From Candidatus Caldarchaeales archaeon (GTDB taxonomy: Archaea; Thermoproteota; Nitrososphaeria_A; Caldarchaeales; Calditenuaceae), in NCBI GenBank assembly GCA_032249095.1, contig JAVVGN010000034.1:1-20076 (forward strand): 20,076 bases of DNA. Reading direction: 5' to 3'. The notes beneath the pieces are model-generated. The model was given only the letters and a program-made list of their open reading frames with translations, ran no database searches and had not been told where the DNA came from. Numbering within the stretch: the stretch's first letter is position 1; every line of letters starts with the position of its first letter. Made by a program: the position numbers and the translations under genes. Below are positions 1,058-18,639 of this stretch, piece by piece.

Positions 1058-1501
1058 CTAGCGTGCGGAGGCGACCTTCTTCAGGTTTGCGACAAGCTCC
1101 CGGACTTTAGACTTTGCCAGTTCCTGCATGATCCTCGCCCCGAGACTGGCCGCGACTCCTCCGACAGACACATCGGCAGCCCACTTCACGAGAGACTTTC
1201 CCTTCTCCTGCTCAATCAGGTCAAGGTCTATCCTGAGATCGACTGTTGACTGCATTCCAGTTCCGTGGCCAGTGACGGATATATGGCTTGGCGCCCGCAG
1301 GTCGGTGTACTTAAACAACATGCCAATATTCCCACTTAGCAGGCCTACCTTCAGCCTAAACTCTGCGTAAAAGCTCTCGGCGTCACGCGGCTCAAACTTC
1401 CTCAAATCAGGCAAAGCCCTCGACAACCTGCTAGGATCCGTCAGAAGCTTCCAGACACTTTCAGGAGGGGAAGGAACCTCGAAAGACCCCTCTAACCTCA
1501 T
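1058..1501 (-). CDS. SRPBCC-fold protein, CoxG (carbon monoxide dehydrogenase subunit G)-like
   Basis: 147 aa. The N-terminus MRLEGSFEVPSPPESVWKLLTDPSRLSRALPD follows the CoxG/SRPBCC pattern. It is divergent from a MoxR + VWA (CoxD/CoxE-like) pair, the usual genomic partners. Confidence 0.7.
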   Translation of the reverse strand: MRLEGSFEVPSPPESVWKLLTDPSRLSRALPDLRKFEPRDAESFYAEFRLKVGLLSGNIGMLFKYTDLRAPSHISVTGHGTGMQSTVDLRIDLDLIEQEKGKSLVKWAADVSVGGVAASLGARIMQELAKSKVRELVANLKKVASAR

Positions 1502-1574
1502 GTGTCCGTCAACTTAACATCCTCACACAGCTTTTTAACAATTTCTAAGAGGACTCTTCCACTCTTGTCGAGGG

Positions 1575-1587
1575 AAAAATTTTATTA
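1575..1587 (+). promoter_or_regulatory. TATA-box-like element upstream of the MoxR-type ATPase gene
   Basis: AAAAATTTTATTA sits about 30 nt upstream of the GTG at 1614. That spacing is typical of leaderless archaeal transcripts. Confidence 0.45.
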
Positions 1588-1613
1588 GGTCAGACTGAGG
1601 CTACTACGGTAGA

Positions 1614-2531: not shown

Positions 2532-2532
2532 G

Positions 2533-3690
2533 ATGAACCTCTATACGTTTGTGACAGATCTTTCCCGGGTTCTCCGTAAGTATGGGCTTAAGGTGGGCAT
2601 CTCAGAGTCGATAGATGCCTGTGAGGCGATATCACTAGTCGCCGGGGGAGGGGTACAGGATCTCTTGACTGCTATACGCGTCACAATGGTGAAGGATCCG
2701 ACGAGGTACCATCTAATTGAAGAGGCTATCCAGGAGGTCGCGTCGGGGGCTGGCGGAGGTGGGGATCGGGGCGAGAGCGAGGGGCAGGAGGGTGAGCAGG
2801 CTGGCTCTTGGCGTGGCGAGGCCCAAAGAGGTAAAGGCCAGGAGCAGGAGAGGGTGAGCACACAATACGTGATGTACAGCCCAGCGGAGGCCCTCCACAA
2901 GAGGACCCTCAGGCCCCTTGACGTAACCAAGCTCCGGACGGGCAGGCGTATCATAAGGAGGATGAAGAGGCGTTTGGCAGTTCTTCCGGGCCGACGCTCC
3001 AAATATTCAAAGCGTGGAGAAATAGAGTTTAAGCGGACCATAAGAGAGAGCTTCAAGACCTTCGGAGAGATAGTTGAGTTCAAGAGGACGCTGAAGACCC
3101 TCACGAGGGCGCGGCTAGTAGCCCTGATTGACATAAGCGGCTCCATGGACACTTATACCGACTGGCTCGTGAGGGCCATGTACCTGTTCAGCCGATTCAC
3201 TAGGCGCGTAGAGATTTTTGTATTCAGCACAAGGCTCAGGCGTGTGACCGACTACCTCCTCGTCTCCAATCTAGAGGAGATACGTAGACGGCTATCCGAG
3301 GAACTAGACCTGTGGGGGAGCGGAACAAGGATCGGATACTGCTTAAAGACCTTCCTCGAATCTTATGGTAACCTGGTTGATAAAACTTGGGTGGTTATAA
3401 TCGTGAGCGACGGGTGGGACACGGGAGAGCCCGAGCTGCTGAGAGAGAGTATAGAGATGCTGCGGCAGCGCGTGAGCAGGATTATCTGGCTCAACCCTCA
3501 CTCTGATAAGCCCGGCTTCAAGCCCCTCACCATAGGCATGCTGACTGCATTACCGTACATCGACATACTCGCAGGCACCAGCATCATGGAAGACTACCAC
3601 TCATTCCTCACATTCTTCGGCAAATCTATAAAGCCTATGAAGAGGTCTAGCTACCAGGCCAGATATGGTGTCTCAGCGAGGCCCATATAG
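2533..3690 (+). CDS. VWA domain protein (CoxE-like), partner of the MoxR ATPase
   Basis: The ATG at 2533 lies directly after the MoxR stop (2529-2531). A MIDAS motif is present (LIDISGSMD), and the C-terminal part has VIIVSDGWDTGEP...IIWLNPH, as in CoxE-family proteins. There is a Gly/Glu/Gln-rich low-complexity insert (GAGGGGDRGESEGQEGEQAG...). Confidence 0.8.
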   Translation: MNLYTFVTDLSRVLRKYGLKVGISESIDACEAISLVAGGGVQDLLTAIRVTMVKDPTRYHLIEEAIQEVASGAGGGGDRGESEGQEGEQAGSWRGEAQRGKGQEQERVSTQYVMYSPAEALHKRTLRPLDVTKLRTGRRIIRRMKRRLAVLPGRRSKYSKRGEIEFKRTIRESFKTFGEIVEFKRTLKTLTRARLVALIDISGSMDTYTDWLVRAMYLFSRFTRRVEIFVFSTRLRRVTDYLLVSNLEEIRRRLSEELDLWGSGTRIGYCLKTFLESYGNLVDKTWVVIIVSDGWDTGEPELLRESIEMLRQRVSRIIWLNPHSDKPGFKPLTIGMLTALPYIDILAGTSIMEDYHSFLTFFGKSIKPMKRSSYQARYGVSARPI

Positions 3691-4960
3691 AGCTATTACA
3701 GACTTCCGGGAGATAGGAGAGGTCCTAGAAGAGATACGCGCCAGAGTGCGCCCCCTGGTGCGAACCGTTTCCATGAGGACGCGCGACGCTGTGGGCATGG
3801 TTGTCGCGAGGGGGGTGATGGCGCCTAGAGACCACCCGCCTCTACATATGTCTCATATGGACGGGTTCGCTGTCAGAAGCACTGACATCAGGGACGCCTC
3901 TGAAGAGAGGCCTGTTTTCCTCAGGGTGGTCGGCTCGATAGGGCCTGGGCAGACCTCCGAGTTCCTTGAGAAGGGCTGCGCGGTGAGGATACACACGGGT
4001 GGCTACTTGCCGGAAGGGGCAGACGCCGTCATTAGGCAGGAGGAGATCGCCGTAGCCGATAGCGAAAAGATAGGAGTGACGCGCCCCATTGAGCCGATGG
4101 AGAACGTGGTACCAGCCGGGAGCGAGGTCAGGGAGGGAGAGGTGCTGGTCAGAAGTGGCGAGATCTTAGGGCCGGCTATGGCCTCTCTTCTTGAGACTCT
4201 GGGCATAGCTATGGTGGAGGTGAGAGCCCCCGTGAGAGTGGCCATAGTGTCGTTCGGGGACGAGCTCACTGAGGATCCGGAAGAGGTCCAGCGAGGGAAG
4301 CTCCTAAACTCACACGCCTACCTCGTGTACCACATGGTTAAGAGGCTTTTCTGCGACCCCATGAAACCCATCATCGTACCCGACGACCCAGGACAGATAA
4401 GGGAGGCGACAACTCGTTTACTAAGCAGCTCGGACTGTGTTTTGACGATAGGCGGCTCAAGCGTGGGCGATATCGACCTCGTTAGCGCCGAGCTCAAACG
4501 TCTAGCTGAGCTCTTCATACAGGGAATAAAGCTCCAGCCGGGGAGGGTGGGGGGAGCTGCGGTGATAGATGGGAAGCCGCTCATCATGCTTCCAGGGCTC
4601 ATACATTCCACCGTGAATGTTTTTAACTATCTGGCAGCCCCCATCTTAGCACATCTAGGCGGAACAAATATAGAGCAGTTTATGCTCAGGGTTAGGGCCT
4701 ACCTAGATTCCGAGATACACTTCCCTAAGAGACGAAACTTCGTCAGAGTCGTATGGGTTACTTTGTCGCGGAGAGGCGATGCCTACTACGCTCGGCCAAA
4801 CATAAGCGACGCGTCCAGCATAAGGAGCATCGCGGAGTCACACGGCTACGTAGAGATCCCCCCAATGGTTGTGGATCTAAAAGCTGGGCAGCCTGTCGAG
4901 GTCAAGATACCTCTCTGGCTAGCTGGATATGGCTTGAACATTTTCGGCAAGGCCTTGTAA
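3665..4960 (+). CDS. moeA: Molybdopterin molybdenumtransferase MoeA
   Basis: 431 aa. It has the motif HMSHMDGFAVRS (S.MDGfAv), IHTGGYLPEGADAVI, and a central TIGGSSVGDID MoCF-binding-like segment. It overlaps the VWA gene end by 26 nt. Confidence 0.85.
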   Translation: MVSQRGPYRAITDFREIGEVLEEIRARVRPLVRTVSMRTRDAVGMVVARGVMAPRDHPPLHMSHMDGFAVRSTDIRDASEERPVFLRVVGSIGPGQTSEFLEKGCAVRIHTGGYLPEGADAVIRQEEIAVADSEKIGVTRPIEPMENVVPAGSEVREGEVLVRSGEILGPAMASLLETLGIAMVEVRAPVRVAIVSFGDELTEDPEEVQRGKLLNSHAYLVYHMVKRLFCDPMKPIIVPDDPGQIREATTRLLSSSDCVLTIGGSSVGDIDLVSAELKRLAELFIQGIKLQPGRVGGAAVIDGKPLIMLPGLIHSTVNVFNYLAAPILAHLGGTNIEQFMLRVRAYLDSEIHFPKRRNFVRVVWVTLSRRGDAYYARPNISDASSIRSIAESHGYVEIPPMVVDLKAGQPVEVKIPLWLAGYGLNIFGKAL

Positions 4961-4962
4961 CA

Positions 4963-4970
4963 CTTAATAT
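4963..4970 (+). promoter_or_regulatory. TATA-box-like element upstream of orc1/cdc6
   Basis: CTTAATAT lies about 30 nt upstream of the TTG start at 4998, inside a 37-bp intergenic gap. Confidence 0.35.
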
Positions 4971-4997
4971 CCCTCGCTTCCAGAATTCATCAGGGCG

Positions 4998-6152
4998 TTG
5001 AGAATTTTCAAGAGCGAGGAGAAGCTTTCCCCCGAGTACGTGCCTCCGAGGCTACCCCATAGAGAGCGCGAACTCAGCCTCCTCGAGACCTTCTTCTCCA
5101 GCTACCTCGCGGGGCGACCGGCGGTGGCGGTGAGAGTGCTTTTGGTGGGCTCCGTAGGAACCGGAAAGACGGCTCTATGCAAGCTTTTTGGCAGACGACT
5201 TATGGAGGCGGTAAACTTTGCGAGATATGTCCACATAAACTGTAGAATCCATCCCACACTCAGCTCAATTCTCAAGAAGGTCGTAGAGTCTCTTGGGGCT
5301 CCTCTGCCAGTTAGGGGGCTATCGACCGAGGAGCTCGGGGGTAGATTGATGGATCTGCTTGAGAAGAAGAGGGTGCTGCTCGTCATCGGGCTCGATGAGT
5401 TCGACGGCTTCCTTCGAAACGATCCACAGGGCGTCTATAAGTTCCTGAGGCTGGGAGAGGAGAGGCAGGAGCTTGCACGCATCTCGACCATCGCGGTCAC
5501 GAGGAACATAGAGATCATGGACCAGCTCGATGAGGCTGTGCGAAGCATGTTCCAGGCAGGCGTGATGTATCTGGATGAGTATAGCGCGGATCAACTCAGC
5601 GATATAGTTGATTATAGGAGCTCGGAGGCGTTTCACGAAGGCGTTCTAAGCGAGGACGCTAAGTCCCTAATAGTGGATATCGCTGCAGAGCGGGGAGACG
5701 CTAGGTATGCGGTCGAACTGCTCTGGAGGTCGGGCAAGTATGCAGAGAACGAGGGTTCTCCCCGGATAACTCCGGAGCACGTCAGGAAGGCCGCGGCTAG
5801 CATATATCCCTCTATCAGGCGAGAAGTCCTCACGTTCACCTCCAGACACGAGAAGATGCTCCTGCTGGCCGCCTCAAGGTTTCTCCTGAACTCCGACCGC
5901 TCATACATCACATCCAGCGAGCTCTACCAAAACTACCGCGTGGTGTGCGAGGAGTACAAGGTAGCCCCCAAATCCTACACTAGGATCTGGGAGTATATGC
6001 AGAAGCTCGAGGACCTCGGCCTAATACGGATAAAGATATCGAGTAGCGGGGCGAGGGGGAGGAGAAGTCTGATCACTCTGCCGGGAATACCCGCATCGAT
6101 AATGGCTAGGGAGATCTCCGCCTTGCTCGAGTCGTCCTCGGACGAGGAGTAG
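4998..6152 (+). CDS. cdc6: ORC1-type DNA replication protein (Orc1/Cdc6)
   Basis: The N-terminus IFKSEEKLSPEYVPPRLPHRERELSLL is the archaeal Orc1/Cdc6 signature. Walker A is GSVGTGKTA and Walker B is LLVIGLDEFD. A C-terminal winged-helix-like region is present. The apparent start codon is TTG. Confidence 0.9.
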   Translation: MRIFKSEEKLSPEYVPPRLPHRERELSLLETFFSSYLAGRPAVAVRVLLVGSVGTGKTALCKLFGRRLMEAVNFARYVHINCRIHPTLSSILKKVVESLGAPLPVRGLSTEELGGRLMDLLEKKRVLLVIGLDEFDGFLRNDPQGVYKFLRLGEERQELARISTIAVTRNIEIMDQLDEAVRSMFQAGVMYLDEYSADQLSDIVDYRSSEAFHEGVLSEDAKSLIVDIAAERGDARYAVELLWRSGKYAENEGSPRITPEHVRKAAASIYPSIRREVLTFTSRHEKMLLLAASRFLLNSDRSYITSSELYQNYRVVCEEYKVAPKSYTRIWEYMQKLEDLGLIRIKISSSGARGRRSLITLPGIPASIMAREISALLESSSDEE

Positions 6153-7428
6153 CCGGTTCATGCTTGGGAGGCGCGGCCCGCTCCTTCTCTAACCCTCCAG
6201 CAGTGGTCCTCCCTACGAAGATCGTCTTTATGGCCTGAACCTCATCAGGATTCAGACCATAGTGCGCTGATATTCCTTGCTCGCCCCTACGCAACATCTC
6301 CGTAATGTAAGGAAGCATCTCTATCGCCGCCTTAACCCTCGACATCTTGGATTTCGCGGCTATCTTTGCAGTCGCCTCCTCGATCCTAGATCGAAGTTCC
6401 CTCGTCTGCTGCATGAACCGTATCTTGGAGGGAAACTCGAATCCTGCCCCTCTTTCGCCGCTAGCTGTCTTCACTATCCCGGGGCCAGCCCCCACGAGTG
6501 GTGTGATGTATCTGGTCAGGCCCCACATCTGGTACCTCTTCAGCCTGGCGTGATGATGATCGGCGTCGGCCAGTATCTTCAGCGCCTCTGCCAGCGCCTC
6601 CGGCTTCTGGTATTGTTTAAAGACGTTGTCGTAAACCCAAGTGAAGATCTGGTCGAGATCCAGCTCGGTGTTCATCGTTAATTGCCGGCCCTCAGAAGCC
6701 TTCTTGGCCCCAAAGACCGCGGCCAAGACATCGAAAGCGTTCTTCTCCCTATTCCTCTCACCTAGGTAGGCGAAAAGTAGCGAGGGGTTCGCCCTCATCG
6801 ATGATAATAACTGAAGATCATTTATCGCGGCCCTCATATCCCCCTCCGCCCTCTCCGAAATCTCCTTAAGCATTTCTTCATCAACCTCCAGCCCCTCTTT
6901 CTCTGCGATCACCTTTAGATGCCTCAATACCTCGTCCTTCCTCACCTTGCTGAACTTAATCATAGGCGCCAGCTCTCTCAGTGGGGCGAGTCTCGGGTCC
7001 CATGGGTCGTTAGCAACTAGGACTATCGGGACGCGCGACATCCTGATAAGCGAAGAAAGAACCGCCACCCCGCCTGCCGACTCTTTACCAGCGATTCCAT
7101 CAACCTCGTCCACAAGTATTATTCTCTTCCTTGTCCCAGCGATCGTGGTTTGGGAGGCGGAGGCCCCGACTAACGCCTTCAGCCTCTCACCACTCCTCTC
7201 GTCGCTCGCGTTTACTTCAACTAGATCCCACCTGTATTCGTTTGCGTAGGCCAGGACTAGGCTCGTCTTCCCCACACCCGGGGGCCCAACAAGCATAACG
7301 GCCTTCGATGATGGCGTGCCTCTCTCCCAGCCCCGCATCCACTCTAGAAACTGGTTGACGGCCTGCTTGTTTCCAACAACCTCTCGGACATATCTGGGCC
7401 GATACTTCTCAGTCCAGGGGATAGACAT
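6106..7428 (-). CDS. rfcL: Replication factor C large subunit
   Basis: The N-terminus is IPWTEKYRPRYVREVVGNKQAV. Walker A is VGPPGVGKTS and Walker B is IILVDEVDG. It lies 3 nt downstream of rfcS on the same strand. Its 3' end overlaps the orc1/cdc6 3' end by 47 nt. Confidence 0.9.
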   Translation of the reverse strand: MSIPWTEKYRPRYVREVVGNKQAVNQFLEWMRGWERGTPSSKAVMLVGPPGVGKTSLVLAYANEYRWDLVEVNASDERSGERLKALVGASASQTTIAGTRKRIILVDEVDGIAGKESAGGVAVLSSLIRMSRVPIVLVANDPWDPRLAPLRELAPMIKFSKVRKDEVLRHLKVIAEKEGLEVDEEMLKEISERAEGDMRAAINDLQLLSSMRANPSLLFAYLGERNREKNAFDVLAAVFGAKKASEGRQLTMNTELDLDQIFTWVYDNVFKQYQKPEALAEALKILADADHHHARLKRYQMWGLTRYITPLVGAGPGIVKTASGERGAGFEFPSKIRFMQQTRELRSRIEEATAKIAAKSKMSRVKAAIEMLPYITEMLRRGEQGISAHYGLNPDEVQAIKTIFVGRTTAGGLEKERAAPPKHEPATPRPRTTRARRRSP

Positions 7429-7431
7429 GTC

Positions 7432-8409
7432 CTACTTACTCTCGTGGGCGGCGGCGTATAGATGGGTCAGAAACATCATCAGCTGAAGCTCCGGGGTCGC
7501 GCCTTGGGATAGCCTGAAGTCAACCTCGCCGAGTAGCGAGATGAGTGTGAGCTTCTTATGCTCAGGAATATTCAGATAAAAGATCTCGCGATACATCTGT
7601 CCAATAAGGTCTCTCTCAGAGGCCCCGTTGACGTAGAGGATTGTTCTGAGCTGATTCCTCGCCTCCTCGAGTTTTCCCGCCACGGCAAACTCCATCAGCC
7701 TACGCACCTCGCCCCCCCACGCTATACCCGCAACCTGGTAGATCAGCGAGTCGTCTATATCTCTGCTATATGTAGAAGCCGTTTGTAGAATGTTTATACA
7801 GCGCCTCAGATCCCCCTCCGTAACTTCGTATAGAGCCTTCAACGCTTGGCTCGAAACCCGCAGTTTCTCCCTATTTGAGATCCTTTCTACTGCCAGCTTA
7901 ACGTTCTCGAACTCTATCGGCTTAAACTTGAAGACGGCACACCGCGACTGTATCGGCTCTATGATCCGGTTTGCATAGTTTGCCGCGAGTATGAAGCGGC
8001 ACGTCGCAGAGAACTGCTCCATAACCCTCCTGAAGGCGTGCTGTGCGTCTGCGGTGAGCATGTCCGCCTCGTCGAGTAACAGGATCTTAAACCCTATGCC
8101 GCCCATAGGGACGGTTCTTGCGAATCCCTTCACCTTCTCCCTAATCACGTCGATCCCTCTCTCGTCGCTTGCGTTTATCTCGAGAAAATGTCCATCATCT
8201 ATGTAGCGGGGTCCGAAGAGGTCTGCCGCGAAGGCGTGCGCCGTGGCGGTCTTACCTACTCCTGGAGGACCCGCGAACAGCATGTGTGGAGCCATGCGCG
8301 TCTTAACCATCGTTTGAAGGCTGGTCACGACCGCCTCTTGGTTTATGATGTCGGCCAGGGTTCTCGGCCTATACTTCTCTATCCAGGGGATTGTCTCCTG
8401 TAGAGCCAA
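7432..8409 (-). CDS. rfcS: Replication factor C small subunit
   Basis: The N-terminus is IPWIEKYRPRTLADIINQ. Walker A is AGPPGVGKTATA, the DEAD-type Walker B is LLLDEADMLT, and an SRC motif is present (IQSRCAVFKF). The apparent start codon is TTG (8409). Confidence 0.92.
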   Translation of the reverse strand: MALQETIPWIEKYRPRTLADIINQEAVVTSLQTMVKTRMAPHMLFAGPPGVGKTATAHAFAADLFGPRYIDDGHFLEINASDERGIDVIREKVKGFARTVPMGGIGFKILLLDEADMLTADAQHAFRRVMEQFSATCRFILAANYANRIIEPIQSRCAVFKFKPIEFENVKLAVERISNREKLRVSSQALKALYEVTEGDLRRCINILQTASTYSRDIDDSLIYQVAGIAWGGEVRRLMEFAVAGKLEEARNQLRTILYVNGASERDLIGQMYREIFYLNIPEHKKLTLISLLGEVDFRLSQGATPELQLMMFLTHLYAAAHESK

Positions 8410-9802: not shown

Positions 9803-12800
9803 ATGTCTAAACTAGGCGAGAGAAATCTAGGCGCAGCGCACTTACTGTCATTCCTGTTGATTATCGCCTTAGGGGTTCCAGCCCCACTCTTTTTAAAAAC
9901 GGCTTACGAGACTCCCGATGTAGGAGTTGAGGGGGGAGTCTTTGATGTGCGTGTTGGCCCCACCCCTAGGTCGGGCGACATAGTTCTTGGATTACTTTAT
10001 GTTACAATCCCCGAGAACATGTTGGGGAAGGTTAGGCTTATTATAGAGTCAAATGCGAGGGACCTCGTCACGGGGAGAAAGCAGAATATTTGGCTAGAGC
10101 TGTGGAATGGTAAGATAGGGGCGGAAGAGGATACTTGGTGGGTGAATAGAAGGAAGCTGGCCCAGTCTTCTGAGGAGAGCCCGCGTATTAGCTATGTACC
10201 GCTTATTTACCGCGAGATGACGCTTGCCGTCGTCTGGGTCAAGAGTCCGGACTTGGATACAATAACGGTAAGAGTCAATGTTACGGCATCTCCAATTGTA
10301 ATAGTGGAAACTAAGCCAACTATATACGACGTCTTGTTAGAGAACAGTGTCACGCCCGAGAGCCCAATCTTTGAAAAGATCGTGCTGTCATTGAACAAGG
10401 ATCCTGTTAAGATATTCGAGTATGTTAGAAATAACGTGTTTTTCGACGCTTATTGGGGGCTTCTGAGGGGTGGGTTGCGGACCTACTATGACATGTATGG
10501 CAATAGTCTCGACCAGTCCAGCCTACTTGTCTCCCTCCTTAGAACTGCGGGCTATCCTGCTAGATTTGCCTACGGCATAGTTAGGGTGCCTACCAAGACC
10601 CTAGCGGAGAACCTAGGTTTGAGAGATACAAAAGCTGGGCTAGAGGGAGCTGTCTGGATTCATAGAGTCGCGGGACTTCTCTACCACAACGACCAAGACA
10701 GCTCTATGCTATATCATGTATGGGTCAGGGCGTATGTAAACGGAACATGGATAGACATGGATCCTTCATTCAAGCGGGTGGTCCGGAAAATTGACTCCCC
10801 CGTAACGCTATCAGCCACCCCCTCGTCAACTGATACTTCCTTCGCTAAAGCCTTTAGTATTTATTTACAGCCACTTTCAGACCTACCGTTATACGACATA
10901 AGTAGAGGTGTCTGGATTATTGAAGAAAGGGGTGTAAGAGGGCCGCCCGGTGAGTATACTTTACTCGGGCTATACAGCAGCTTGCCCGAAGAATTCAGGG
11001 GCTTTATTACTGTCTATTACCCCAAGTGGTCTGATGCTAGAGGATACGACTTCGCATGGGGAAATTACTCATTCACTCTTCCTACTTCAGCTTTGGGAGC
11101 TTACCGGCTGACTGCCCGGTTCATCCCTGCGTCAAAGCAGGCGGCTGATTATATCGCGAGCCGTCCGGACGGTTTAAGCGGCATCCGGATAAATGATAGG
11201 AAGGTTTTGCTGAGACCTCAGTTTCTCCTTAATGGGTTGGTGATTTCTCAGGGAGACGCGGCATTACCCGGGCACTGGTTACCGATAAAAATGAAGTTTA
11301 AAGTGACTCTCCCGGATGGGTACACCTTCATCGGCTGGGGTGAGGAAAGCTTGATGGGCTATGCCGCGTACGTAGTGGACTTCATGAAGACTCGTGCATA
11401 TGGCGAGATAGGAGTTGAGGGCGCTCGAGGTTCCTTGCTGGCCCTATTAAACCCTAAGCTGACTTCAGGCATCGATAAGGACGAAGTGGTCGGTCGAATA
11501 CTCTACCTCCAGACGCGGCGGTACCAGATTGAGAGATGGCATCAGATTGAGAGAATCTGGAGTTTCCGTCATATTGCGCACGTATTCCCTCTCAACATTC
11601 ATAAGGCTGAGTATTATCAGCTCATTAATGATGGCGGGAACCTTGTGATCGGCCCGCCAATGTTCAGCGCAGGCATAGGTTGGAACTCATGGGCATACTA
11701 TGTAGTCCTCGATCCTGAGGACGGAGTCCTTTCCAAGTCTGAAGGAAGGCCGGTTTCTATAAAAGAGTTGCACCCAAGCACAATACCCTCTTACCTCCCT
11801 GGCTCCTTCTATGAGGGGGAGGTGGTAGCAGCAATCCATAACACAGTACCATACTCGACAGTGCATACATTCCTCTATGCCGCATCCAAAGGCATAAAGA
11901 TCATACATGTTAATAGGGAGAACCTCTCATCCATGCCAAACTCGATACCCCGCTGGATTAGAGACGGGATTTCTAGAATAGCGGATGAGTGGAAAGGCGT
12001 TGAGTTTAACGCATTCATGCCCGAACTCCCAGTAAATCCTGATGTGTTATCAATCTTCGTCGATGACGATCCAAACACAAAGCCGCCAGAGATTAAACTA
12101 GCTGGCGAGATGTTCGGAGTGCTTACAGTAATGCCGCTCTCCAAATACCACGCCGCAGTGGGGGCTTTAATATATAACTTAGGACGAGGTGTCGAGTTGG
12201 GCGGAGGTGCACTAGCTTCTACGGAGCAGGGCTCCTACACAGCTCGTACGGAGGGCAGGGAGACAGGGTCCTCCTATTCCGAAACCACTTCAACAAGAAC
12301 GACAAGTGCTGATGAGATTGTGCTTGAAAACTCCGCGCAGACAGGGAAGACGGATGAGCTAGACCAACAGCTGGAGGAACTCAAAAAACAACTACAATCT
12401 ATAGATCCAAACGACCCTAGGTACACGGACATTCTTTACAAATATTTAGAGCTTGCAGAGGAATTAAGGAGAGAGTTAAGCGCTGCTGTAACGGATCTTG
12501 TTAAAGCAACTTTTGCCGCAGAGCTGGCGTGGAAGGTGATCAACAACCAGATCCCGATTTTCCTCAACCCAGACGGTATTCCCATGGAGGTGACAGACCT
12601 TGTGAAATATTTGGAAAATATGGGTGTAGACCGGGAAACAAGACTCAAAGTCATTCTCAACCAACGGGAGGCGATTCAGCGCGCAAACACTCTCGGGTAT
12701 ATCGAGCTTCCCTACGAGATAAATGGGGAAACAGTGGTCATGAGGCTGAACTATAAGTATAAGCTTGAGGTTTTAACAAGCGCCGGGATTAAGTTCACCA

Positions 12801-14569
12801 GCGAATGGTCCTCCATGACAGACGCTCAGAACGCAGTGAAATACTACGATGATCTAAAAGACTCCACAAAAAGTATCTCATTTGCTCTATCCAGCGTAGA
12901 GATCATCCCTCAAAATCCTATAACAGTAAACTACAAGGTTCAGGGTGGCCTCATAGAGAGTACGACAACCAAGAGCATAGAAATTGATAAGATAACCTTA
13001 ACACCGGAACAGCTTGGCGGGGGATTTGCCTTAAACGCGATAGTAGATCTCTATACAAATATTAAGAGCCTAAACAACGTGGTTTTAAATGATTGGAAGT
13101 ACGAGAGGGCAAACCTGCCCGGAGGATACGAAGCGAAGCCTCTGTATGAGTTCTGGAATCTTAGCGAGACCCAAATACAGAAAATAGAGGGCGAGCTTAA
13201 ACAGGGGATGCTGCCGAGCGACCCGCCGTTTATAGAGATGTGGCTCGAAAATCCAATAGGCGAGTTTGCAGGTTTCAACCCAGACATCGGCTACGGCTTC
13301 GGGCTGAACCTACTGACTTATTCGGGCGTCGGATCAAAGCCTAAGCACTTGGCGGTCTACGGTGTTTGGCCGGGAATATACTACCTCAATGTCGTGGGGA
13401 CTAAAAAGGAGGGGGTGGACGGATATGTCAGGATATCATATAAGTCTGGTGGGTTTGAGGAGGCTGTAAGTATTCCTTTCAAGGTTCAGTTCGGAGAGCT
13501 CGTGAAAATACCTATAATTGTTGATAGGTGGCAAAGGATAACGGTTGAGGAGGCCAGGCCTGGCATTAGGATATCGGCTGGTGAGGACGTATTTGTTGGA
13601 CGGGTCGGAAGACAGTTGGAAATATCCGGCAAGATTTTAGACCAGTTCGGCCGTGAAGGGGTCAGTGGAGCTAAAGTTATGGCGACATTCACGTCTCCAG
13701 ACGGGTCTATCCAAAACCTTGAAGAGGGCGTAACCCTTCCTGATGGATCGTTCAAGCTCAAGGTAACACCAGCTCTGGCAGGTCTCCATTATATCACCGT
13801 GGTGGCATCAGCCGACGGGTACTACCCCTCCACCAAAACGATTCTAGTCGTGGTACATGGTAACTTGAGGGTTTTAAACGATCTCAGTATTCCGAAGGAT
13901 CTCCTGAACGCGTATCTTAAAGTTAAGGATGGTACAAAACAATTAGAGATCCCTGTTGACTCAGAGATGGCACTCCCAGTAGGTCGATACGTATTATCAA
14001 TCAAGGCCAGAAGCTCTGAAAAATGGCAGATTACCCCCATGAAAGAAATGGAGGTCGAGACATATTTAGAGAAAGAATACAGCCTAAGATTGTCTGAGTT
14101 TTTATCCGCCAAGGTGCTTATAGACGTTTCAACGGACACAGGCAGTGTGGAGGGGGGTGGATGGTATAGGGTCGGGGACAAGGCTACGTTAACCGCTATC
14201 CCACCACCAGATGGTAAATACCAATTTGTAGGCTGGAAAGGCGACATAGAATCTACCCAGAATCCCCTCATAGTTCAGGTAGACAGGCCGTTAACTCTAA
14301 GGGCTCAATGGAAACCAGTAGTAGAGCAGACTCAGCAAACAACGACTACGCTGATTACGGCGAAGACCACTACCACCCATAAGGAGGACACAACTACAAC
14401 ACCCGACTTGACGACGACTTATAGGTCGGGGCAGACATGGCAGCAGGATTCAATGTTAATGCTGTTGGTGGTTGCGGCCTTTGTCGCGGCTCTTCTGGGC
14501 TTGCTCATCATCATAAGGCGTAAATCGTTGAAGGGAGTCAGGCCGGGGAAGGGCCCCGCTACCGCCTAG
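9803..14569 (+). CDS. Giant (1588 aa) membrane-anchored surface protein with a transglutaminase-like core and Ig-like and InlB-B-repeat-like domains
   Basis: The ORF is uninterrupted.
- N-terminal hydrophobic signal/anchor: LLSFLLIIALGVPAPLFL.
- Transglutaminase-core pattern: GNSLDQSSLLVSLLRTAGYPARFAYG...HVWVRAYVNGTWIDMDPS (about 10385-10777).
- Coiled coil: ELDQQLEELKKQLQS... (about 12355-12480).
- Ig-like segment: about 13600-13850.
- InlB-B-repeat-like segment: GGWYRVGDKATLTAIPPPDGKYQFVGWKGD...LTLRAQW (about 14148-14315).
- Thr-rich stalk, then a C-terminal TM helix followed by RRK. Confidence 0.92.
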   Translation: MSKLGERNLGAAHLLSFLLIIALGVPAPLFLKTAYETPDVGVEGGVFDVRVGPTPRSGDIVLGLLYVTIPENMLGKVRLIIESNARDLVTGRKQNIWLELWNGKIGAEEDTWWVNRRKLAQSSEESPRISYVPLIYREMTLAVVWVKSPDLDTITVRVNVTASPIVIVETKPTIYDVLLENSVTPESPIFEKIVLSLNKDPVKIFEYVRNNVFFDAYWGLLRGGLRTYYDMYGNSLDQSSLLVSLLRTAGYPARFAYGIVRVPTKTLAENLGLRDTKAGLEGAVWIHRVAGLLYHNDQDSSMLYHVWVRAYVNGTWIDMDPSFKRVVRKIDSPVTLSATPSSTDTSFAKAFSIYLQPLSDLPLYDISRGVWIIEERGVRGPPGEYTLLGLYSSLPEEFRGFITVYYPKWSDARGYDFAWGNYSFTLPTSALGAYRLTARFIPASKQAADYIASRPDGLSGIRINDRKVLLRPQFLLNGLVISQGDAALPGHWLPIKMKFKVTLPDGYTFIGWGEESLMGYAAYVVDFMKTRAYGEIGVEGARGSLLALLNPKLTSGIDKDEVVGRILYLQTRRYQIERWHQIERIWSFRHIAHVFPLNIHKAEYYQLINDGGNLVIGPPMFSAGIGWNSWAYYVVLDPEDGVLSKSEGRPVSIKELHPSTIPSYLPGSFYEGEVVAAIHNTVPYSTVHTFLYAASKGIKIIHVNRENLSSMPNSIPRWIRDGISRIADEWKGVEFNAFMPELPVNPDVLSIFVDDDPNTKPPEIKLAGEMFGVLTVMPLSKYHAAVGALIYNLGRGVELGGGALASTEQGSYTARTEGRETGSSYSETTSTRTTSADEIVLENSAQTGKTDELDQQLEELKKQLQSIDPNDPRYTDILYKYLELAEELRRELSAAVTDLVKATFAAELAWKVINNQIPIFLNPDGIPMEVTDLVKYLENMGVDRETRLKVILNQREAIQRANTLGYIELPYEINGETVVMRLNYKYKLEVLTSAGIKFTSEWSSMTDAQNAVKYYDDLKDSTKSISFALSSVEIIPQNPITVNYKVQGGLIESTTTKSIEIDKITLTPEQLGGGFALNAIVDLYTNIKSLNNVVLNDWKYERANLPGGYEAKPLYEFWNLSETQIQKIEGELKQGMLPSDPPFIEMWLENPIGEFAGFNPDIGYGFGLNLLTYSGVGSKPKHLAVYGVWPGIYYLNVVGTKKEGVDGYVRISYKSGGFEEAVSIPFKVQFGELVKIPIIVDRWQRITVEEARPGIRISAGEDVFVGRVGRQLEISGKILDQFGREGVSGAKVMATFTSPDGSIQNLEEGVTLPDGSFKLKVTPALAGLHYITVVASADGYYPSTKTILVVVHGNLRVLNDLSIPKDLLNAYLKVKDGTKQLEIPVDSEMALPVGRYVLSIKARSSEKWQITPMKEMEVETYLEKEYSLRLSEFLSAKVLIDVSTDTGSVEGGGWYRVGDKATLTAIPPPDGKYQFVGWKGDIESTQNPLIVQVDRPLTLRAQWKPVVEQTQQTTTTLITAKTTTTHKEDTTTTPDLTTTYRSGQTWQQDSMLMLLVVAAFVAALLGLLIIIRRKSLKGVRPGKGPATA

Positions 14570-14839: not shown

Positions 14840-15757
14840 TTATTGGCTGTATCTCGCTTCGCCCCAGCGTATCTTTATCTCGGCTTCGTCTGAGGTGTCG
14901 CGCCTTAGTGGCCGGTCCACTATCAGCCTCGCCCAGCAACGCGTCGGCTCGCCGTCCCCTATGACGTGATATCTCCTGTCCAGCTTGGGGCCTAGCAGCG
15001 TTCTGTTCTTGGCTCGGCATCCGAGCTCGTTGAGTATCCGGATCACGGCTCCCGCCGACGGCATGCTCCTCGCCAGCACCGTTACCGGCTCGGGCGGCCC
15101 CCTCACGGGTATCCAGAGAGCCTGCTTAGTCTCACCGCTGCCCACCCTGACGACCTCCTCCGAGACGGTCATGGTCTCGAGGCCGTGTTGGGCTGATAGC
15201 CCGGTCTCGAGGGTCCTCTTGATCTCTAGCCTCGCGTTTCTGAGGCCTGATCCGTATGCGGAGATGCTGCATGCTAGGCGCCCGTCTCGGGCCTCAAGGG
15301 TGGCTTGAGCCGAGATGTCGCGGTCAGAGACTAGTAGTACCCTCTTCGTCGGCTCTATGGCGGCTGGCTCAGGCGCAGGCGCGAGGAGCATGACCCAGAC
15401 ATCTAGGCCCCCCTCAAGATCTATCTTAGCCGCGGGCGCGAGGATGGCTCCGTGGAGATACCCGTCGCCCCTGACCAGGCCGGCGCATGGCTTCAGGGGG
15501 ACCTCAAATGTTAGTGGCTGGGTTTTGGGGGGCTGGAGGACGCTCCACACCTCTATGTGTCTGAAGCTCGCGCTCCAGCCTCTGCCCCGCCTGAAGAAGA
15601 GCCTCCCAAACCCTATCTCGATCCGCCTAGGATTCCTGCCCAGGCCCACATGCACCTCCGCCCTATCTTTACTGATGGTGGAGCCTGGGGACTCGGCCTT
15701 CGCTAGGTTGATTATCCTACCCAACACGCTCTCTTCCGATACGTTATGCAGTAACAA
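14840..15757 (-). CDS. Hypothetical protein (305 aa, very GC-rich, no recognisable motifs)
   Basis: This is the longest ORF in the region. The plus-strand ORFs opposite it are Ser/Leu/Arg/Pro-rich shadows. The apparent start is TTG at 15757, 16 nt downstream of the stop of the upstream wHTH-like frame. Confidence 0.6.
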   Translation of the reverse strand: MLLHNVSEESVLGRIINLAKAESPGSTISKDRAEVHVGLGRNPRRIEIGFGRLFFRRGRGWSASFRHIEVWSVLQPPKTQPLTFEVPLKPCAGLVRGDGYLHGAILAPAAKIDLEGGLDVWVMLLAPAPEPAAIEPTKRVLLVSDRDISAQATLEARDGRLACSISAYGSGLRNARLEIKRTLETGLSAQHGLETMTVSEEVVRVGSGETKQALWIPVRGPPEPVTVLARSMPSAGAVIRILNELGCRAKNRTLLGPKLDRRYHVIGDGEPTRCWARLIVDRPLRRDTSDEAEIKIRWGEARYSQ

Positions 15758-15772
15758 AATGAGAAAAAAGGG

Positions 15773-16240
15773 TTACCGCGTAGGGGCCTTGCTTAGCGGT
15801 CGGACTGCCCCCCCATCTCCCTCCACTATCTTTATTCTTTCTCCGAGCTTGTCTGTCTTTCTGTAGAGCCATTTCGCCCTCCTCCCGGGCCTCCTCTCCC
15901 TCTCCAGTACTTCTAGTGTGGTTAGGTGTTCTAGTGCTGGTCTTACGTGTTTGAAGTCTTTTGGGGCCCAGCCCCTCCTTAGGAGTTCTGAGGCTACGTC
16001 GCTGGCGCTCCTCCACTCGTCGAGGAAGCCCTCTAGGGCAAGCCTGACTATCCTTCCGTATAGCTCGTCCTCAGAGACCTTGACGTACTCGTATTTCCTC
16101 TCGTAGACTATTCTCGGGACCTAGCACTCTATCCTGACTTCTGGTACCTTGGATAGTAGTATTGAGCGGACCAGCTGCTCCAGGGCCTCCACTCTGTGCT
16201 TGAGTTCCTCGACCTCATCCTCGATGCCCAGCCAACACAG
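15773..16240 (-). pseudogene. Start-less wHTH-like ORF interrupted by an in-frame TAG (probable pseudogene)
   Basis: One minus-strand frame is open from 16240 to 15773 except for a TAG at 16121-16123. It reads LCWLGIEDEVEELKHRVEALEQLVRSILLSKVPEVRIEC*VPRIVYERKYEYVKVSEDELYGRIVRLALEGFLDEWRSASDVASELLRRGWAPKDFKHVRPALEHLTTLEVLERERRPGRRAKWLYRKTDKL... This is a coiled coil plus a winged-helix-like segment. There is no ATG/GTG/TTG start in the first 100 or so codons after the TAG. Confidence 0.45.
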
Positions 16241-16469
16241 CTACCCAAATCGCAATAGATAAGCTCAAATGGTCTTTTCTCGCCCTGGACTCGGCGGCCG
16301 ACGTTTTCACTTGTTCGCGTCTCAGGCGGCATTCACAGTTGGCATCACCTTCTATCTCCAATCCTGATGGGGTACTTATTGGAAAATCAAAAACGAGATA
16401 GGAGAACGAGTTCGGCACAGCATCTATGGTGCGCATTATAGTCAGCGACCAGGTACTGCCAAGTTTGTA

Positions 16470-17147
16470 TTATCTCCCCTCCCCCTTCAGGAGTAGAAGA
16501 AACCCTGCAAAATGCTGTTTGAAAACCTCCTCTGCAACACTCCTATCGTCAAGAATTCTACGGAAAACCTCAAGCCTCCCCTCTTCACTCAAATCATTCC
16601 ACGCATCCTTTGAATCACCCTGCACAGTAACACCGGCCAACCTCACTAGATGATCCTCAATCTTGTGGCTGGGACCGACCACATCGTCAAGCCCATTAAT
16701 AACTACAACAAACTTAAACCTATGGTCCCCCAGAATACACTTATAACATATTAAACGTCCCCCAACCGAATTCTCTATCTCCTCACATTTTACACCAATT
16801 TCGTTCAGTTTCCTCATAATTATTTCACTTAATGCAGACAGCTCGTCGCTCTCTTGGTCGAGTATGAATGCAATGGTTTTATAGTATTTAACAATTGTTT
16901 TTAATGTCTGTATAGCTCCATCTCGAGTATAGGTGGGCTTTACTATTGCGGCTGTTTTATTACCGTTGAGGTGGTGGCATATTAGCGGCACAACAACATA
17001 GTCCTCTCTCCCATCACCCAAAACGATTAACGAATCTGTTGGTGTTGCTTTGTCTGCAAGCATCTTCTGGGGGAGCTGCTTATCGATTTTACGCAGTTTA
17101 GACCTGATATTGTCATAGAGTTTGTTGTCTAATGGACAGGATCTCAT
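16470..17147 (-). CDS. Hypothetical 225-aa partner of the ABC-type ATPase; possibly Toprim-like (DUF4276/DUF3226/DUF4435-type)
   Basis: The start ATG overlaps the ATPase stop (ATGA, 17147-17144). The gene is AT-rich. Acidic motifs occur in Toprim-like order: IVLGDGRED (aa 41-49), FILDQESDE (aa 94-102), KIEDHL (aa 162-167). A CHH (aa 57-59) and a CxxC (CYKC, aa 134-137) are also present. The fold assignment is an inference only. Confidence 0.8.
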   Translation of the reverse strand: MRSCPLDNKLYDNIRSKLRKIDKQLPQKMLADKATPTDSLIVLGDGREDYVVVPLICHHLNGNKTAAIVKPTYTRDGAIQTLKTIVKYYKTIAFILDQESDELSALSEIIMRKLNEIGVKCEEIENSVGGRLICYKCILGDHRFKFVVVINGLDDVVGPSHKIEDHLVRLAGVTVQGDSKDAWNDLSEEGRLEVFRRILDDRSVAEEVFKQHFAGFLLLLKGEGR

Positions 17148-18172
17148 AGCAGGAAAACTTCGGCATATCGTGGATCAATACCTGCCTTAGCCCACTCCTC
17201 CAACTCGTCCGGCTTTACCCTCCTAGCCCTCAGCTTCCCATCCCTAAGCGAGGTAAGCAAAACAGTTGCGTCCTTGACGTATGCAATGATTTTTTCGACG
17301 ACTTCAAGGCTGTGGGTGGACACGATAACCTGTTTCCCCTCTTCAACCAAGTCAGCGAACCACTCCGTAACGTGGGATAAAAGCCGTGGATTGAAATGTG
17401 TTTCCAAGTCGTCCCACAAAACCACATCAGGCTTATAGTGCTCGTAAAGCATCCTATTGATGATGTAAAGATGTACACCAGCACCGAGGTCGCCTAACCT
17501 AATTCTAGTCCCGTCAGCCAAGAGTACATAGAAAGTTATGGAGCCGGCCATAAAGGGCTCAGCGCTAATATTCCAGTATTCCTCCGAAACAAATCTCGAG
17601 ACATCCTTAGCGATGAGAGCAGGGACCCCCGTGTTCAAAATCTCAATCCACTTACTTTGCAAGTATTCATATGCGAACTTCACTAATTTTGTTGAGAAAA
17701 TTAAAGTATTGTCCGTAATTAATACATGTTTTAATAAATATAACTGGGAGTCAATTCTACCGTCGGGATATATATATCCCAGATACATATAATCTCTCTC
17801 ACCAACTCTGCGTGTGTAGGAAGAATATCCAACAGGTAAATAATTCGTATATATACCAATACCCTCTCCAGGCTCTTTTGTGAATAATAGTTCTCGATCG
17901 TCAACTTTTATTACTATGTTTTTTGCAATATATTTGTTAAACAGGAAAGTATATCCTTTCTCCAATAGTGTTTTATGACATTCTTGTAGCACTTCAATGG
18001 CAGTTGGGGGATAGTACGGGACCAGTCTGAATGGGTTTGGTGCGAGGAATAGCGCCTCGAGTATTGTTGTTTTTCCCGAGTTATTAGGACCGACGAGTAT
18101 TGTGAGTTTGTCTAGCTCAACCTCGCCCTCGACGACGCCTTTGAAGTTTTCAAGCCTGAGCCGTTTTATCAT
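17144..18172 (-). CDS. SMC/OLD-type ABC ATPase (AAA_15/AAA_21-like)
   Basis: The N-terminus IKRLRLENFKGV...LTILVGPNNSGKTTILEAL is the RecF/SMC/OLD-type head with Walker A at 18068-18091. It also has a signature-like LGDLGAGV, Walker B DVVLWDDLE, and QVIVSTHS (the His-loop region). The gene is very AT-rich. Confidence 0.88.
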   Translation of the reverse strand: MIKRLRLENFKGVVEGEVELDKLTILVGPNNSGKTTILEALFLAPNPFRLVPYYPPTAIEVLQECHKTLLEKGYTFLFNKYIAKNIVIKVDDRELLFTKEPGEGIGIYTNYLPVGYSSYTRRVGERDYMYLGYIYPDGRIDSQLYLLKHVLITDNTLIFSTKLVKFAYEYLQSKWIEILNTGVPALIAKDVSRFVSEEYWNISAEPFMAGSITFYVLLADGTRIRLGDLGAGVHLYIINRMLYEHYKPDVVLWDDLETHFNPRLLSHVTEWFADLVEEGKQVIVSTHSLEVVEKIIAYVKDATVLLTSLRDGKLRARRVKPDELEEWAKAGIDPRYAEVFLL

Positions 18173-18198
18173 GCCATGTTTTCACATGCCTTGCAAGG

Positions 18199-18204: not shown

Positions 18205-18213
18205 GATTGTTGG

Positions 18214-18639
18214 TTGTTTGGGAGTAATGTGACGCCTTCCTCCGGGGTCCGTCCAGCCCTAATCTCTTCATCCTTTTACATGGCTCTCTGCCTAAGCGGG
18301 GCGTCGGACTGGGAGGGGACGCTGATCCGGGAGCTCGGGCCGGAATCCCTCGCGAGGCACCACATATTCCCGAGGAGCCTCTTCAGGGCTGTGGGCGAGG
18401 AGGAGGGCTACGTCTCAGGGATGGAGAACGTGACCCTGATATCGCCTGCCCTGAACTCCGAGCTCTCCGACAGGCCACCGGCTGATTATCTTCAGCGATA
18501 TGGGGAGGAGCTCCGGAAGCACCTCATACCCACGGATAGGGAGCTGTGGGGTAAGGATAGGTTCGAGGAGTTCTGCGAGAGGAGGGCCGAGCTGATCCAT
18601 TCGTTCCTCAGGGAGAGGATGCCGAGGGTGGTGAAGTGA
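18214..18639 (+). CDS. C-terminal His-Me-finger fragment of a DUF262/DUF1524 (GmrSD-type) protein; probably a truncated remnant
   Basis: LARHHIFPRSLF...ENVTLISPALNSELSDRPPADYL matches the HHIFP...N.t.i....N......P..Y nuclease module found at the C-terminus of DUF262-family type IV restriction-like proteins. No N-terminal DUF262 part is present. The ORF begins (TTG 18214 or ATG 18280) right at the edge of the AT-rich cassette. Confidence 0.5.
   Translation: MFGSNVTPSSGVRPALISSSFYMALCLSGASDWEGTLIRELGPESLARHHIFPRSLFRAVGEEEGYVSGMENVTLISPALNSELSDRPPADYLQRYGEELRKHLIPTDRELWGKDRFEEFCERRAELIHSFLRERMPRVVK

Follow-up and report, generated by a model that had tools for sequence, protein, structure and literature searches.

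Organization of the gene pair

The window examined here, a 20,076-nucleotide stretch of DNA from a Candidatus Caldarchaeales archaeon (assembly GCA_032249095.1; positions 1–20,076 of contig JAVVGN010000034.1), contains two overlapping genes on the reverse strand that encode an ATP-binding cassette (ABC) ATPase and a smaller protein, designated here the partner. A previous reading of the DNA made without database searches (the sequence-only reading) proposed that these genes constitute a miniaturised, split ATPase–effector immune module related to OLD and PARIS, in which the effector is possibly Toprim-like. The two open reading frames (ORFs), the ATGA overlap between them, the upstream TATA box, and all of the motifs and residue numbers quoted in that reading were located exactly as stated (Table 1). 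Our analysis indicates that the pair is probably an archaea-specific ABC-ATPase system of two genes whose effector belongs to an uncatalogued family. The class of the ATPase, the strict coupling of the genes, a set of conserved residues, an offset in GC content, and mosaicism of the alleles are directly supported by the results described below.

The ATPase gene precedes the partner gene in 18 of 18 related loci, which represent approximately 10 genomic contexts and at least three phyla; this bears out the expectation that the pair would be syntenic in other archaea. An xTGA start/stop overlap was present in all 10 junctions inspected (the window and nine loci). The loci derive from the species of the window (L005–L008), related Thermoproteota-type contigs (L001, L004, and L011–L014), Pyrohabitans of the Hydrothermarchaeota (L002 and L003), Methanoperedens (L009), and other archaeal metagenome-assembled genomes (L010 and L015–L018). 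Across these loci, identity of the partner falls to ~26–37% and the architecture is unchanged. The chromosomal position of the pair is constant within one lineage (L004 and L011–L014) and differs between lineages. When 185,579 species genomes were scanned for motifs with narrow patterns, only two loci were returned.

An AT-rich, TATA-like element lies 27–35 nucleotides upstream of the pair in most loci. The putative promoter block of the window, caacaatcttataa, recurs in L004, L011, and L014 with unchanged spacing, and most of the remaining loci have AT-rich equivalents. Judged from the sequence, the spacing of the putative TATA box implies that the pair is transcribed as a leaderless or near-leaderless bicistronic mRNA.

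Both genes of the cassette have a GC content of 0.43 (0.43–0.46 at third codon positions, GC3), compared to 0.51–0.57 (GC3 0.64–0.70) in the window's core genes (S8e, CoxG, MoxR, VWA/CoxE, MoeA, Orc1/Cdc6, RFC-L, and RFC-S). The MoeA and RFC-L proteins match those of a Candidatus Caldarchaeales metagenome-assembled genome in NCBI exactly. Counts made by hand in the sequence-only reading (14 of 60 nucleotides G+C at 17881–17940, 40 of 60 at 15361–15420, and 37 of 60 at 7441–7500) were exact. Its description of the cassette as compositionally foreign holds with respect to the host core genes; the cassette is not the sole atypical segment, since positions 8966–14569 are GC-poor as well (GC 0.43–0.49). 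In each of seven contexts tested, the GC content of the pair lies 7–11 points under that of its flanks.

Table 1 Features of the gene pair and of its surroundings in the window.
Feature	Position	Strand	Remarks
ATPase ORF	17144..18172	-	342 aa
Partner ORF	16470..17147	-	225 aa; unannotated alpha/beta plus helical protein family; putative effector
ATGA start/stop overlap	17144..17147	-	ATPase stop / partner start; translational coupling
TATA-like box TTATAA	18199..18204	-	~29 nt upstream of ATPase ATG; putative promoter element
Walker A / P-loop GPNNSGKTT (GPNNSGKTTILEAL, aa 28-36, K34)	18065..18091	-	G28, N30, N31, S32, K34, T36 invariant
Insert 1 (aa ~41-200)	17573..18052	-	Hypervariable cassette; putative trigger-sensing surface
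Signature region R-I-R-L-G-D-L-G-A-G (aa 223-232; LGDLGAGV at 226)	17477..17506	-	R223, R225, L226, D228, L229, G230, G232 invariant
Walker B + D-loop VVLWDDLETHFNPR (aa 250-263; VVLWDDLE at 250)	17384..17425	-	W253, D254, D255, E257, H259, N261, P262, R263 invariant
H-loop STHS (aa 285-288)	17309..17320	-	T286, H287, S288 invariant
ATPase C-terminal tail (aa 291-342, end G-x-D-x-R-x-A)	17147..17302	-	Putative partner-docking element
Partner motif 1 IVLGDGRED (aa 41-49)	17001..17027	-	End of beta1/start of alpha1; G46 invariant, D49 at least 90%, position 45 = D/N/E
Partner motif 2 FILDQESDE (aa 94-102)	16842..16868	-	End of beta3; D97 invariant, Q98 at least 90%, E99 in most members
Partner motif 3 HKIEDHL (aa 161-167; KIEDHL at 162)	16647..16667	-	Helix start after beta-meander; H161, E164, H166 at least 90%
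Partner motif 4 DSKDAW (aa 178-183; family DSKxxW)	16599..16616	-	K180 invariant, W183 at least 90%
GmrSD/BrxU-like ORF	18214..18639	+	141 aa; divergent from ATPase
Coiled-coil + winged helix-turn-helix-like frame	15773..16246	-	In-frame TAG
ORF without family match	14840..15757	-	305 aa
Transglutaminase-core / CarboxypepD_reg / InlB-B-repeat protein	9803..14569	+	1588 aa
Core gene block	1058..8409		CoxG to RFC small

The ATPase belongs to the OLD-ABC clade

By sequence criteria, the first protein is an AAA_15/AAA_21 ABC ATPase of the OLD-ABC clade. It matches Pfam AAA_15 (E = 3e-21; 76.9 bits against a cut-off of 32.1) and AAA_21 (E = 1.4e-17; 65.2 bits against a cut-off of 27). The top matches among PADLOC models are AriA (2.6e-23), NsnB (8e-21), PDC-M38A (6.4e-15), Old (1.4e-14), and HEC-02A (1.7e-14), followed by AbiLi, GajA, PtuA, and Mad3; the AbiLi, Mad3, and HEC-02A models match with E = 1e-12 to 1e-14. 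All of these PADLOC matches consist of two stretches limited to the motifs of the ATPase head; therefore, no one family accounts for the protein over its full length. Comparison of the ATPase profile with the ATPase half of P2 Old by hhalign yielded a probability of 96.3%, and the closest sequence in the Protein Data Bank (PDB) is the Thermus OLD nuclease (6P74), which aligns to residues 1–43 only. Pfam, PADLOC, and hhalign thus agree with the previous assignment of the ATPase to the OLD/AriA class. The suggestion that the protein is miniaturised does not hold: 342 amino acids is an ordinary length for the class, in which the PADLOC AbiLi, NsnB, and HEC-02A models span 326–345 positions.

Alignment of 11 orthologues (44–78% identity) revealed that Walker A, the GxG signature, Walker B/D-loop, and the H-loop are all present and conserved (Table 1). 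The sequence LENFKG begins at residue 7, and an unusual LFLxPNPxRxVPY block is invariant in the 11 orthologues. The signature motif reads GxG instead of SGG, as in Old, where the corresponding sequence is FGHGTQR, and in NsnB (PMC12065111). The Walker B/D-loop region aligns with IDEPELYLHP of Old. An invariant aspartate, D255, occupies the position of the usual catalytic glutamate that follows the Walker B aspartate.

The partner defines an uncatalogued protein family

The partner has no match in Pfam, NCBIfam, PADLOC, or PHROGs; response-regulator matches in NCBIfam (E ≥ 0.015) were treated as noise. An exhaustive profile search of 1.84 billion representative sequences identified 245 representatives of the partner family at 50% identity, nearly all of which are stand-alone proteins of 220–240 amino acids. 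No matching entry was found in the literature on archaeal "dark matter". One match to the family (P0291; 202 amino acids) resembles the partner over its first ~115 residues and then turns into an NAD-synthase-like sequence with a PP-loop (SGGIDSS), probably as the result of a chimeric gene call or a frameshift.

Conservation was read from 65 diverse members with identities down to 23%. At this depth, the core of the family comprises G46, D49, P71, D97, Q98, G152, H161, E164, H166, K180, W183, F209, and Q211, which include the residues of four motifs (Table 1). The three acidic motifs pointed out in the sequence-only reading are therefore family-wide signatures. The CHH...CxxC set noted alongside them is private to the lineage: of the residues in CHH at position 57 and CYKC at position 134, C134 occurs only in the window protein, and neither C57 nor C137 is retained at the depth of the family. 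A zinc site formed by this set was rejected because the residues are not conserved.

An AlphaFold2 model of the partner was obtained with a pLDDT score (predicted local distance difference test) of 90.6 and a predicted template modelling (TM) score of 0.89. In the model, residues 39–127 follow the order beta1-alpha1-beta2-alpha2-beta3-alpha3-beta4. Foldseek searches of the PDB and of the viral structure set BFVD with the full model found nothing at E < 1e-3 (best TM score 0.34), and a separate model of the core (residues 34–175; pLDDT 73) likewise gave nothing significant (all E ≥ 2e-3 for both models). The best geometric matches of the core were MogA/MoeA-III/gephyrin-E and B12-binding domains with TM scores of 0.41–0.51, a likeness that we ascribe to the generic resemblance of three-layer sandwiches and not to homology. 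Sequence and profile matches in the PDB were confined to de novo designed alpha/beta proteins and were rejected as compositional or as idealised beta-alpha-beta similarity.

The sequence-only reading considered the partner possibly Toprim-like. If it were a very divergent Toprim nuclease, the pair would be a compact archaeal member of the OLD/PARIS/AbiL/MADS3-4 class. ATPases of this clade usually partner Toprim domains, and the modelled order of secondary structure (residues 39–127) appears compatible with a Toprim core. Toprim domains are defined by a sheet order of 2-1-3-4, a glutamate in the beta1-alpha1 loop, and a DxD motif after beta3 (PMC12065111). Conserved polar residues of the partner follow beta1 ([D/N/E]45-G46...D49) and beta3 (D97-x-E99) as well. 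However, the canonical glutamate is not conserved. The beta1-alpha1 loop reads G-[D/N/E]45-G46, in which asparagine is common and glutamate is rare, and D49 is the nearest well-conserved acidic residue; the motif after beta3 is D97-Q98-E99, that is, D-x-E instead of D-x-D.

Profile and structure searches argue against the Toprim assignment. At E cut-offs of 0.1–1, no Pfam family was matched by the 65 family members or by five subfamily consensus sequences, including Toprim, Toprim_OLD, DUF4435, DUF4276, RloB, and NERD; the partner itself matched none of the Toprim-related families, DUF3226 included, and neither the protein nor the 65 members and five consensus sequences matched an AriB, AbiLii, or Mad4 model. 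Toprim structures were absent from the top 50 Foldseek matches of both the full-chain and core models. When a 65-member profile of the partner was compared by hhalign with P2 Old Toprim, the probability was 0.2% (E = 0.31), as opposed to 96% for the ATPase control; the Toprim template was thin (four sequences), as a search for homologues of P2 Old Toprim gave three fragments. The lone segment aligned in this comparison places VLGDGRED of the partner on LLVEGKTE of Old, which is the Toprim glutamate motif, and three GajA models in PADLOC were weakly matched by single members of the partner family (E = 0.002–0.012). Toprim identity of the partner is unproven: it fails every statistical test that we used, and the likeness appears at the level of motifs only. 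On balance, we consider it unlikely that the partner is a Toprim nuclease.

Two other similarities emerged from PADLOC. Four of the five subfamily consensus sequences matched PDC-M38B models weakly and colinearly (E = 8e-4 to 0.03; in one example, partner residues 38–197 align to model positions 5–176 of 219). Three single members of the family also matched PDC-M38B; the window partner has no such match. HEC-02B was matched at 6e-5 by one of the 65 members, and not by the window protein or the consensus sequences. This match, together with an alpha-beta-beta-beta-alpha segment at residues 103–171, raised the possibility of a PD-(D/E)xK/NERD nuclease. This assignment was dropped because the conserved residues lie off the strands of the meander and the match stems from a single member.

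Alleles of the pair are exchanged as two cassettes

In the lineage in which the pair occupies a fixed site, the flanking proteins are 98–100% identical between strains. By comparison, the ATPases of L004 and L012 are 94% identical and their partners 65% identical; between L004 and L014, the ATPases are 68% identical and the partners 94%. Sliding-window comparisons resolved this divergence into two cassettes with sharp boundaries that are exchanged independently between strains. The first cassette corresponds to ATPase residues ~41–200, designated Insert 1, which are 25–55% identical between L004 and L014; both ends of the protein are 100% identical. The second cassette, defined by comparison of L012 with L004, is contiguous and comprises the C-terminal ~50 residues of the ATPase and residues 1–140 of the partner, beyond which residues 141–221 of the partner are 95–100% identical. 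Since alleles are shuffled between strains with otherwise identical flanks, the pair behaves like a conflict locus.

Sequence entropy among 108 close homologues of the ATPase reaches 1.3–1.65 bits at residues 100–150, compared to 0.02–0.6 elsewhere. Insert 1 is also the GC minimum (0.31–0.33 over residues 57–160). Differing alleles coexist in metagenome sample 3300077104. The partner genes of L012 and L013 (both at 8990-9655), which come from one sample, carry a single nonsense codon (NEG*KD, in place of NEGYKD in the intact relative P0022) next to an intact ATPase gene. When overall divergence was regressed out for 11 pairs, identity of the partner N-domain correlated with that of the ATPase tail (r = 0.63) and not with that of Insert 1 (r = -0.14). 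This residual correlation is consistent with a putative interface between the tail and the partner and with a sensor that would evolve independently.

The nonsense allele bears on the idea that the pair is a selfish addiction module akin to toxin–antitoxin (TA) systems, in which the ATPase restrains a toxic partner and post-segregational killing ensures retention (compare the "AbiEii / type IV TA" annotation of AAA_21). Inactivation of the toxin-side gene beside an intact ATPase, low GC content, and the translationally coupled two-gene layout fit this explanation, as does the frequent location of the pair near HicAB, VapC, or HEPN-MNT modules. Such proximity is weak evidence, given how ubiquitous TA modules are in thermophilic archaea. 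Moreover, the hypervariability of Insert 1 suggests a diversifying external ligand rather than simple neutralisation, the large ATPase gene comes first and the sizes of the proteins are unlike those of classical TA pairs, and the pair was not found on the plasmids or other mobile genetic elements searched. An addiction module is thus a very unlikely explanation for the locus.

Relationship to known ABC-ATPase systems

ABC-ATPase immune systems (OLD, Gabija, PARIS, Septu, Menshen, and HEC) have been well studied in bacteria, and almost nothing is to our knowledge known of such systems in archaea. OLD-ABC-type ATPases pair with varied effectors in defence systems (PMC11464382, PMC12065111, bioRxiv 10.1101/2024.01.29.577857).

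The nearest catalogued relative of the pair appears to be PDC-M38. Payne et al. describe PDC-M38 as an untested candidate proposed by "guilt-by-embedding" in BREX, DISARM, and type I restriction-modification (RM) loci of bacterial RefSeq genomes, in which the gene for a generic AAA_15/21 ATPase precedes a second, small gene (bioRxiv 10.1101/2024.01.29.577857); it carries no domain label in the text consulted. The present pair resembles PDC-M38 in that it forms a two-gene cassette of an AAA_15/21 ABC ATPase, one that matches PDC-M38A, and a protein of ~220–250 residues. It differs in being archaeal and never embedded in the loci examined here, whereas PDC-M38 is bacterial and embedded, and the matches to the B subunit are weak.

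AriA of PARIS is the top PADLOC match of the ATPase. ATPase and effector are encoded by separate genes in both, and in PARIS the ATPase complex sets a nuclease free once it has detected a trigger (PMC11464382). However, the matches to AriA are confined to conserved N- and C-terminal ATPase motifs, and NsnB, Old, and other models score comparably. The partner matches neither DUF4435, AriB, nor a Toprim fold. PARIS typically resides on phage satellites; the pair described here is chromosomal and archaeal. The proteins also differ in size, with AriA at 53–55 kDa and AriB at 35 kDa (PMC11464382) compared to 39 and 25 kDa for the pair. A PARIS-like identity, as the sequence-only reading had suggested, is not supported, since DUF4435, the domain that defines AriB, is absent from the partner.

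NsnB of the Menshen system is the second-best PADLOC match and shares with the ATPase the substitution of GxG for SGG. In the model for Menshen, a C-terminal element of NsnB binds the polymorphic, Rossmann-like N-domain of NsnC (PMC12065111), a contact that has its parallel in the co-variation, described above, of the ATPase tail with the N-domain of the partner. Unlike the pair, Menshen consists of three genes, NsnA (DUF262), NsnB, and NsnC. No DUF262 gene adjoins the pair in any of the 18 loci, the ATPase lacks Pfam DUF3696, and neither NsnC nor PIN is among the partner matches listed.

With OLD (P2 Old, class 1) and GajA of Gabija, the ATPase shares a homologous head, the GxG signature, and the xDxxExxxxP layout of the Walker B/D-loop. 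In those proteins, Toprim is fused to the ATPase, whereas the second function here is encoded by a separate gene whose product has no detectable homology to Old Toprim (0.2%). AbiL (AbiLi and AbiLii/RloB), MADS Mad3-Mad4 (DUF4276), and HEC-02 (ATPase and NERD) resemble the pair in their compact two-gene layout of a ~340-residue ATPase and a small second protein. In contrast to these systems, the partner lacks RloB and DUF4276 in Pfam, and AbiLii and Mad4 are absent from its PADLOC match lists; residues expected of a PD-(D/E)xK nuclease lie off the beta-meander strands of the partner model, and the partner has no NERD match in Pfam.

Genomic context and its bearing on function

We favor, with a modest degree of confidence, the view that the pair is a self-contained, vertically resident, and often recombining archaeal conflict module of the immune or abortive-infection type. 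The mosaic alleles strengthen this ATPase–effector reading, and they lend support to the plausible core of the previous proposal, a split ATPase and effector immune module; the Toprim and PARIS identities and the defence-island setting that accompanied it did not hold up.

Several observations weigh against a role in conflict. Neighbours of the pair are overwhelmingly housekeeping genes in all ~10 contexts, with DNA polymerase B, ATP synthase, KEOPS, and thymidylate kinase among them. They include PolB, crenactin, GAN, and Pcc1 in L001; ferrochelatase, radical SAM, and RNA polymerase in L002; deoxyhypusine synthase, glyoxalase, TENA, and UbiA in L004 and its relatives; thymidylate kinase, AdoMet synthetase, and PAC2 in L010; thioredoxin, Sua5, and CGI-121 in L015; and the A-type ATP synthase operon in L017. 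The sequence-only reading had looked to defence islands and had named housekeeping surroundings of the homologues as an outcome that would speak against it; such surroundings are what we found, apart from the GmrSD-like fragment of this window, which is the sole local defence remnant and does not occur in other lineages. When 97 neighbouring proteins from ~8 contexts were pooled and scanned with PADLOC, scattered matches to generic candidate models were obtained and no RM, CRISPR, or other canonical system. Relatives were found neither on viral contigs (by scanning) nor on PLSDB plasmids (by tblastn with both proteins). The ATPase core is 42–48% identical between phyla, which is unusually conserved for a defence gene. 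Co-variation of the ATPase tail with the partner may reflect DNA linkage only. No nuclease fold is recognisable in the partner by Foldseek or PDB profile searches. PDC-M38, the closest relative, is itself an untested candidate with weak similarity in its B subunit. Finally, the conflict-module reading is a prediction of function obtained by computation.

Some of these observations would be explained if the pair were a cellular housekeeping system, analogous to Rad50-Mre11 or RecF-type ABC ATPases, that helps to maintain DNA or RNA in archaea through repair, segregation, or processing. Housekeeping neighbourhoods in ~10 of ~10 independent contexts, strong conservation of the ATPase head and C-lobe over several archaeal phyla, the stable position of the pair within one lineage (L004 and L011–L014), and its absence from the viral contigs and plasmids scanned are consistent with such a role. 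Divergence of the ATPase or partner to 65–68% identity between flanks that are 98–100% identical, accompanied by independent exchange of cassettes, is atypical of housekeeping enzymes. A housekeeping role also accords poorly with the consistent GC deficit across contexts, the existence of a nonsense allele, the small size of the family (245 clusters; two loci in the motif scan with narrow patterns), and the variable position of the pair between lineages. A housekeeping function is therefore, in our judgment, quite improbable.

Proposed mechanism and implications

If the pair is a conflict module, the ABC ATPase could act as sensor and switch in a manner modelled on PARIS, Septu, and Menshen, in which an ATPase oligomer controls a separate effector (PMC11464382, PMC12065111). 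Hypervariable Insert 1 would recognise a trigger derived from an invader. Binding or hydrolysis of ATP at the conserved head would then alter the hold of the ATPase on the partner, which would be docked on the C-terminal tail and would thereby be released or activated. The partner would serve as the effector through a polar center formed by D49, D97-Q98-E99, H161, E164, H166, and K180, most likely a metal-binding one. These residues suggest that the partner would most likely hydrolyse a phosphoester, probably in nucleic acid, as a metal-dependent phosphoesterase or nuclease. In this scheme, formation of the complex, sensing of a trigger by Insert 1, catalysis by the partner and its target, and an antiviral outcome are inferred.

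A more ambitious version of the conflict-module reading can be put forward tentatively, as a possibility that we regard as somewhat doubtful. The partner may found a new family of effector enzymes that lacks a counterpart in Pfam, the PDB, or viral structure sets, with an alpha/beta fold that is either new or heavily remodelled and an active center of the D/D/H/E/H/K type. In that case, the pair would be an immune module specific to archaea with two independently exchangeable specificity cassettes (Insert 1, and the tail plus effector N-domain) that balancing selection keeps polymorphic at fixed chromosomal sites, in effect a "mix-and-match" innate immune locus outside defence islands.

The pair occurs widely among uncultured archaea, both thermophilic and methane-cycling. 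Annotation of the PADLOC type overlooks it for want of a model for the partner, and it lies outside defence islands and therefore would be missed by guilt-by-association screens. Should the conflict-module reading prove true, the pair would add a new effector family and provide a clean natural case of modular allele shuffling (sensor versus effector cassette) in a single population, with specificity determinants that are directly testable. Should it instead be a housekeeping system, it would represent an uncharacterised conserved archaeal ATPase machine whose extreme allelic diversity needs its own explanation.

Surroundings of the pair in the window

The stretch between RFC and RIO1 in which the cassette sits varies between strains and contains insertion sequence fragments, the GmrSD-like remnant, and a winged helix-turn-helix (wHTH) pseudogene. 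Both flanking elements reported in the sequence-only reading, the truncated GmrSD-like fragment and the disrupted wHTH frame with its internal TAG, were seen. The GmrSD-like ORF has a host-typical GC content of 0.60 and corresponds to only the C-terminal end of a GmrSD/BrxU-like type IV restriction enzyme: it matches PADLOC HEC-05 (1.3e-5) at model positions 519–593 of 600, and its similarity to Pfam GmrSD_C (0.015) falls under the Pfam cut-off and concerns the DUF1524-side end. From these matches, it looks like the remnant of a decayed defence gene. The wHTH-like frame, which also encodes a coiled coil, is interrupted in frame (…PEVRIEC*VPRIVYERKYEY…) and has no obvious start; as read from the sequence, it is likely a pseudogene.

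The wHTH pseudogene, the GmrSD fragment, and a DUF429 gene were considered as a third linked gene and rejected, as none is kept across lineages. In two unrelated lineages, the DUF429 gene is located upstream of the pair at a distance of 0.3–3 kb (3351–4079 in L002 of Pyrohabitans; 7099–7752 in L004, and also in L012, L013, and L014). Its proximity could be coincidental; the gene is absent from the other contexts.

The 305-residue ORF, which matches no family, has the highest GC content of the window (0.62; GC3 0.74). Gene calls in L005 and L007 include it as well, and its exact sequence is not on record. The gene for the 1588-residue protein, which ends in a C-terminal transmembrane anchor, has a GC content of 0.49, under that of the core genes, and occurs in L007 and L020 as well as in the window. 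At its position, L005 contains several small ORFs and a fragment of a DUF4096 transposase; because of this replacement, we regard the gene as a strain-variable insertion of a surface protein.

Three independent assemblies (L021, L022, and L023) all break, at the start of each contig, exactly 156 nucleotides upstream of RFC-S, and L020 stops just short of the pair. These breaks suggest that assemblers fail at the edge of a strain-heterogeneous region that spans approximately 8410–19500 of the window. The core block upstream of this region has the order CoxG, MoxR-type AAA, VWA/CoxE, MoeA, Orc1/Cdc6, RFC large, and RFC small. The Orc1/Cdc6 gene is located beside a GC-poor intergenic segment (~8410–8965) that could be a replication origin.

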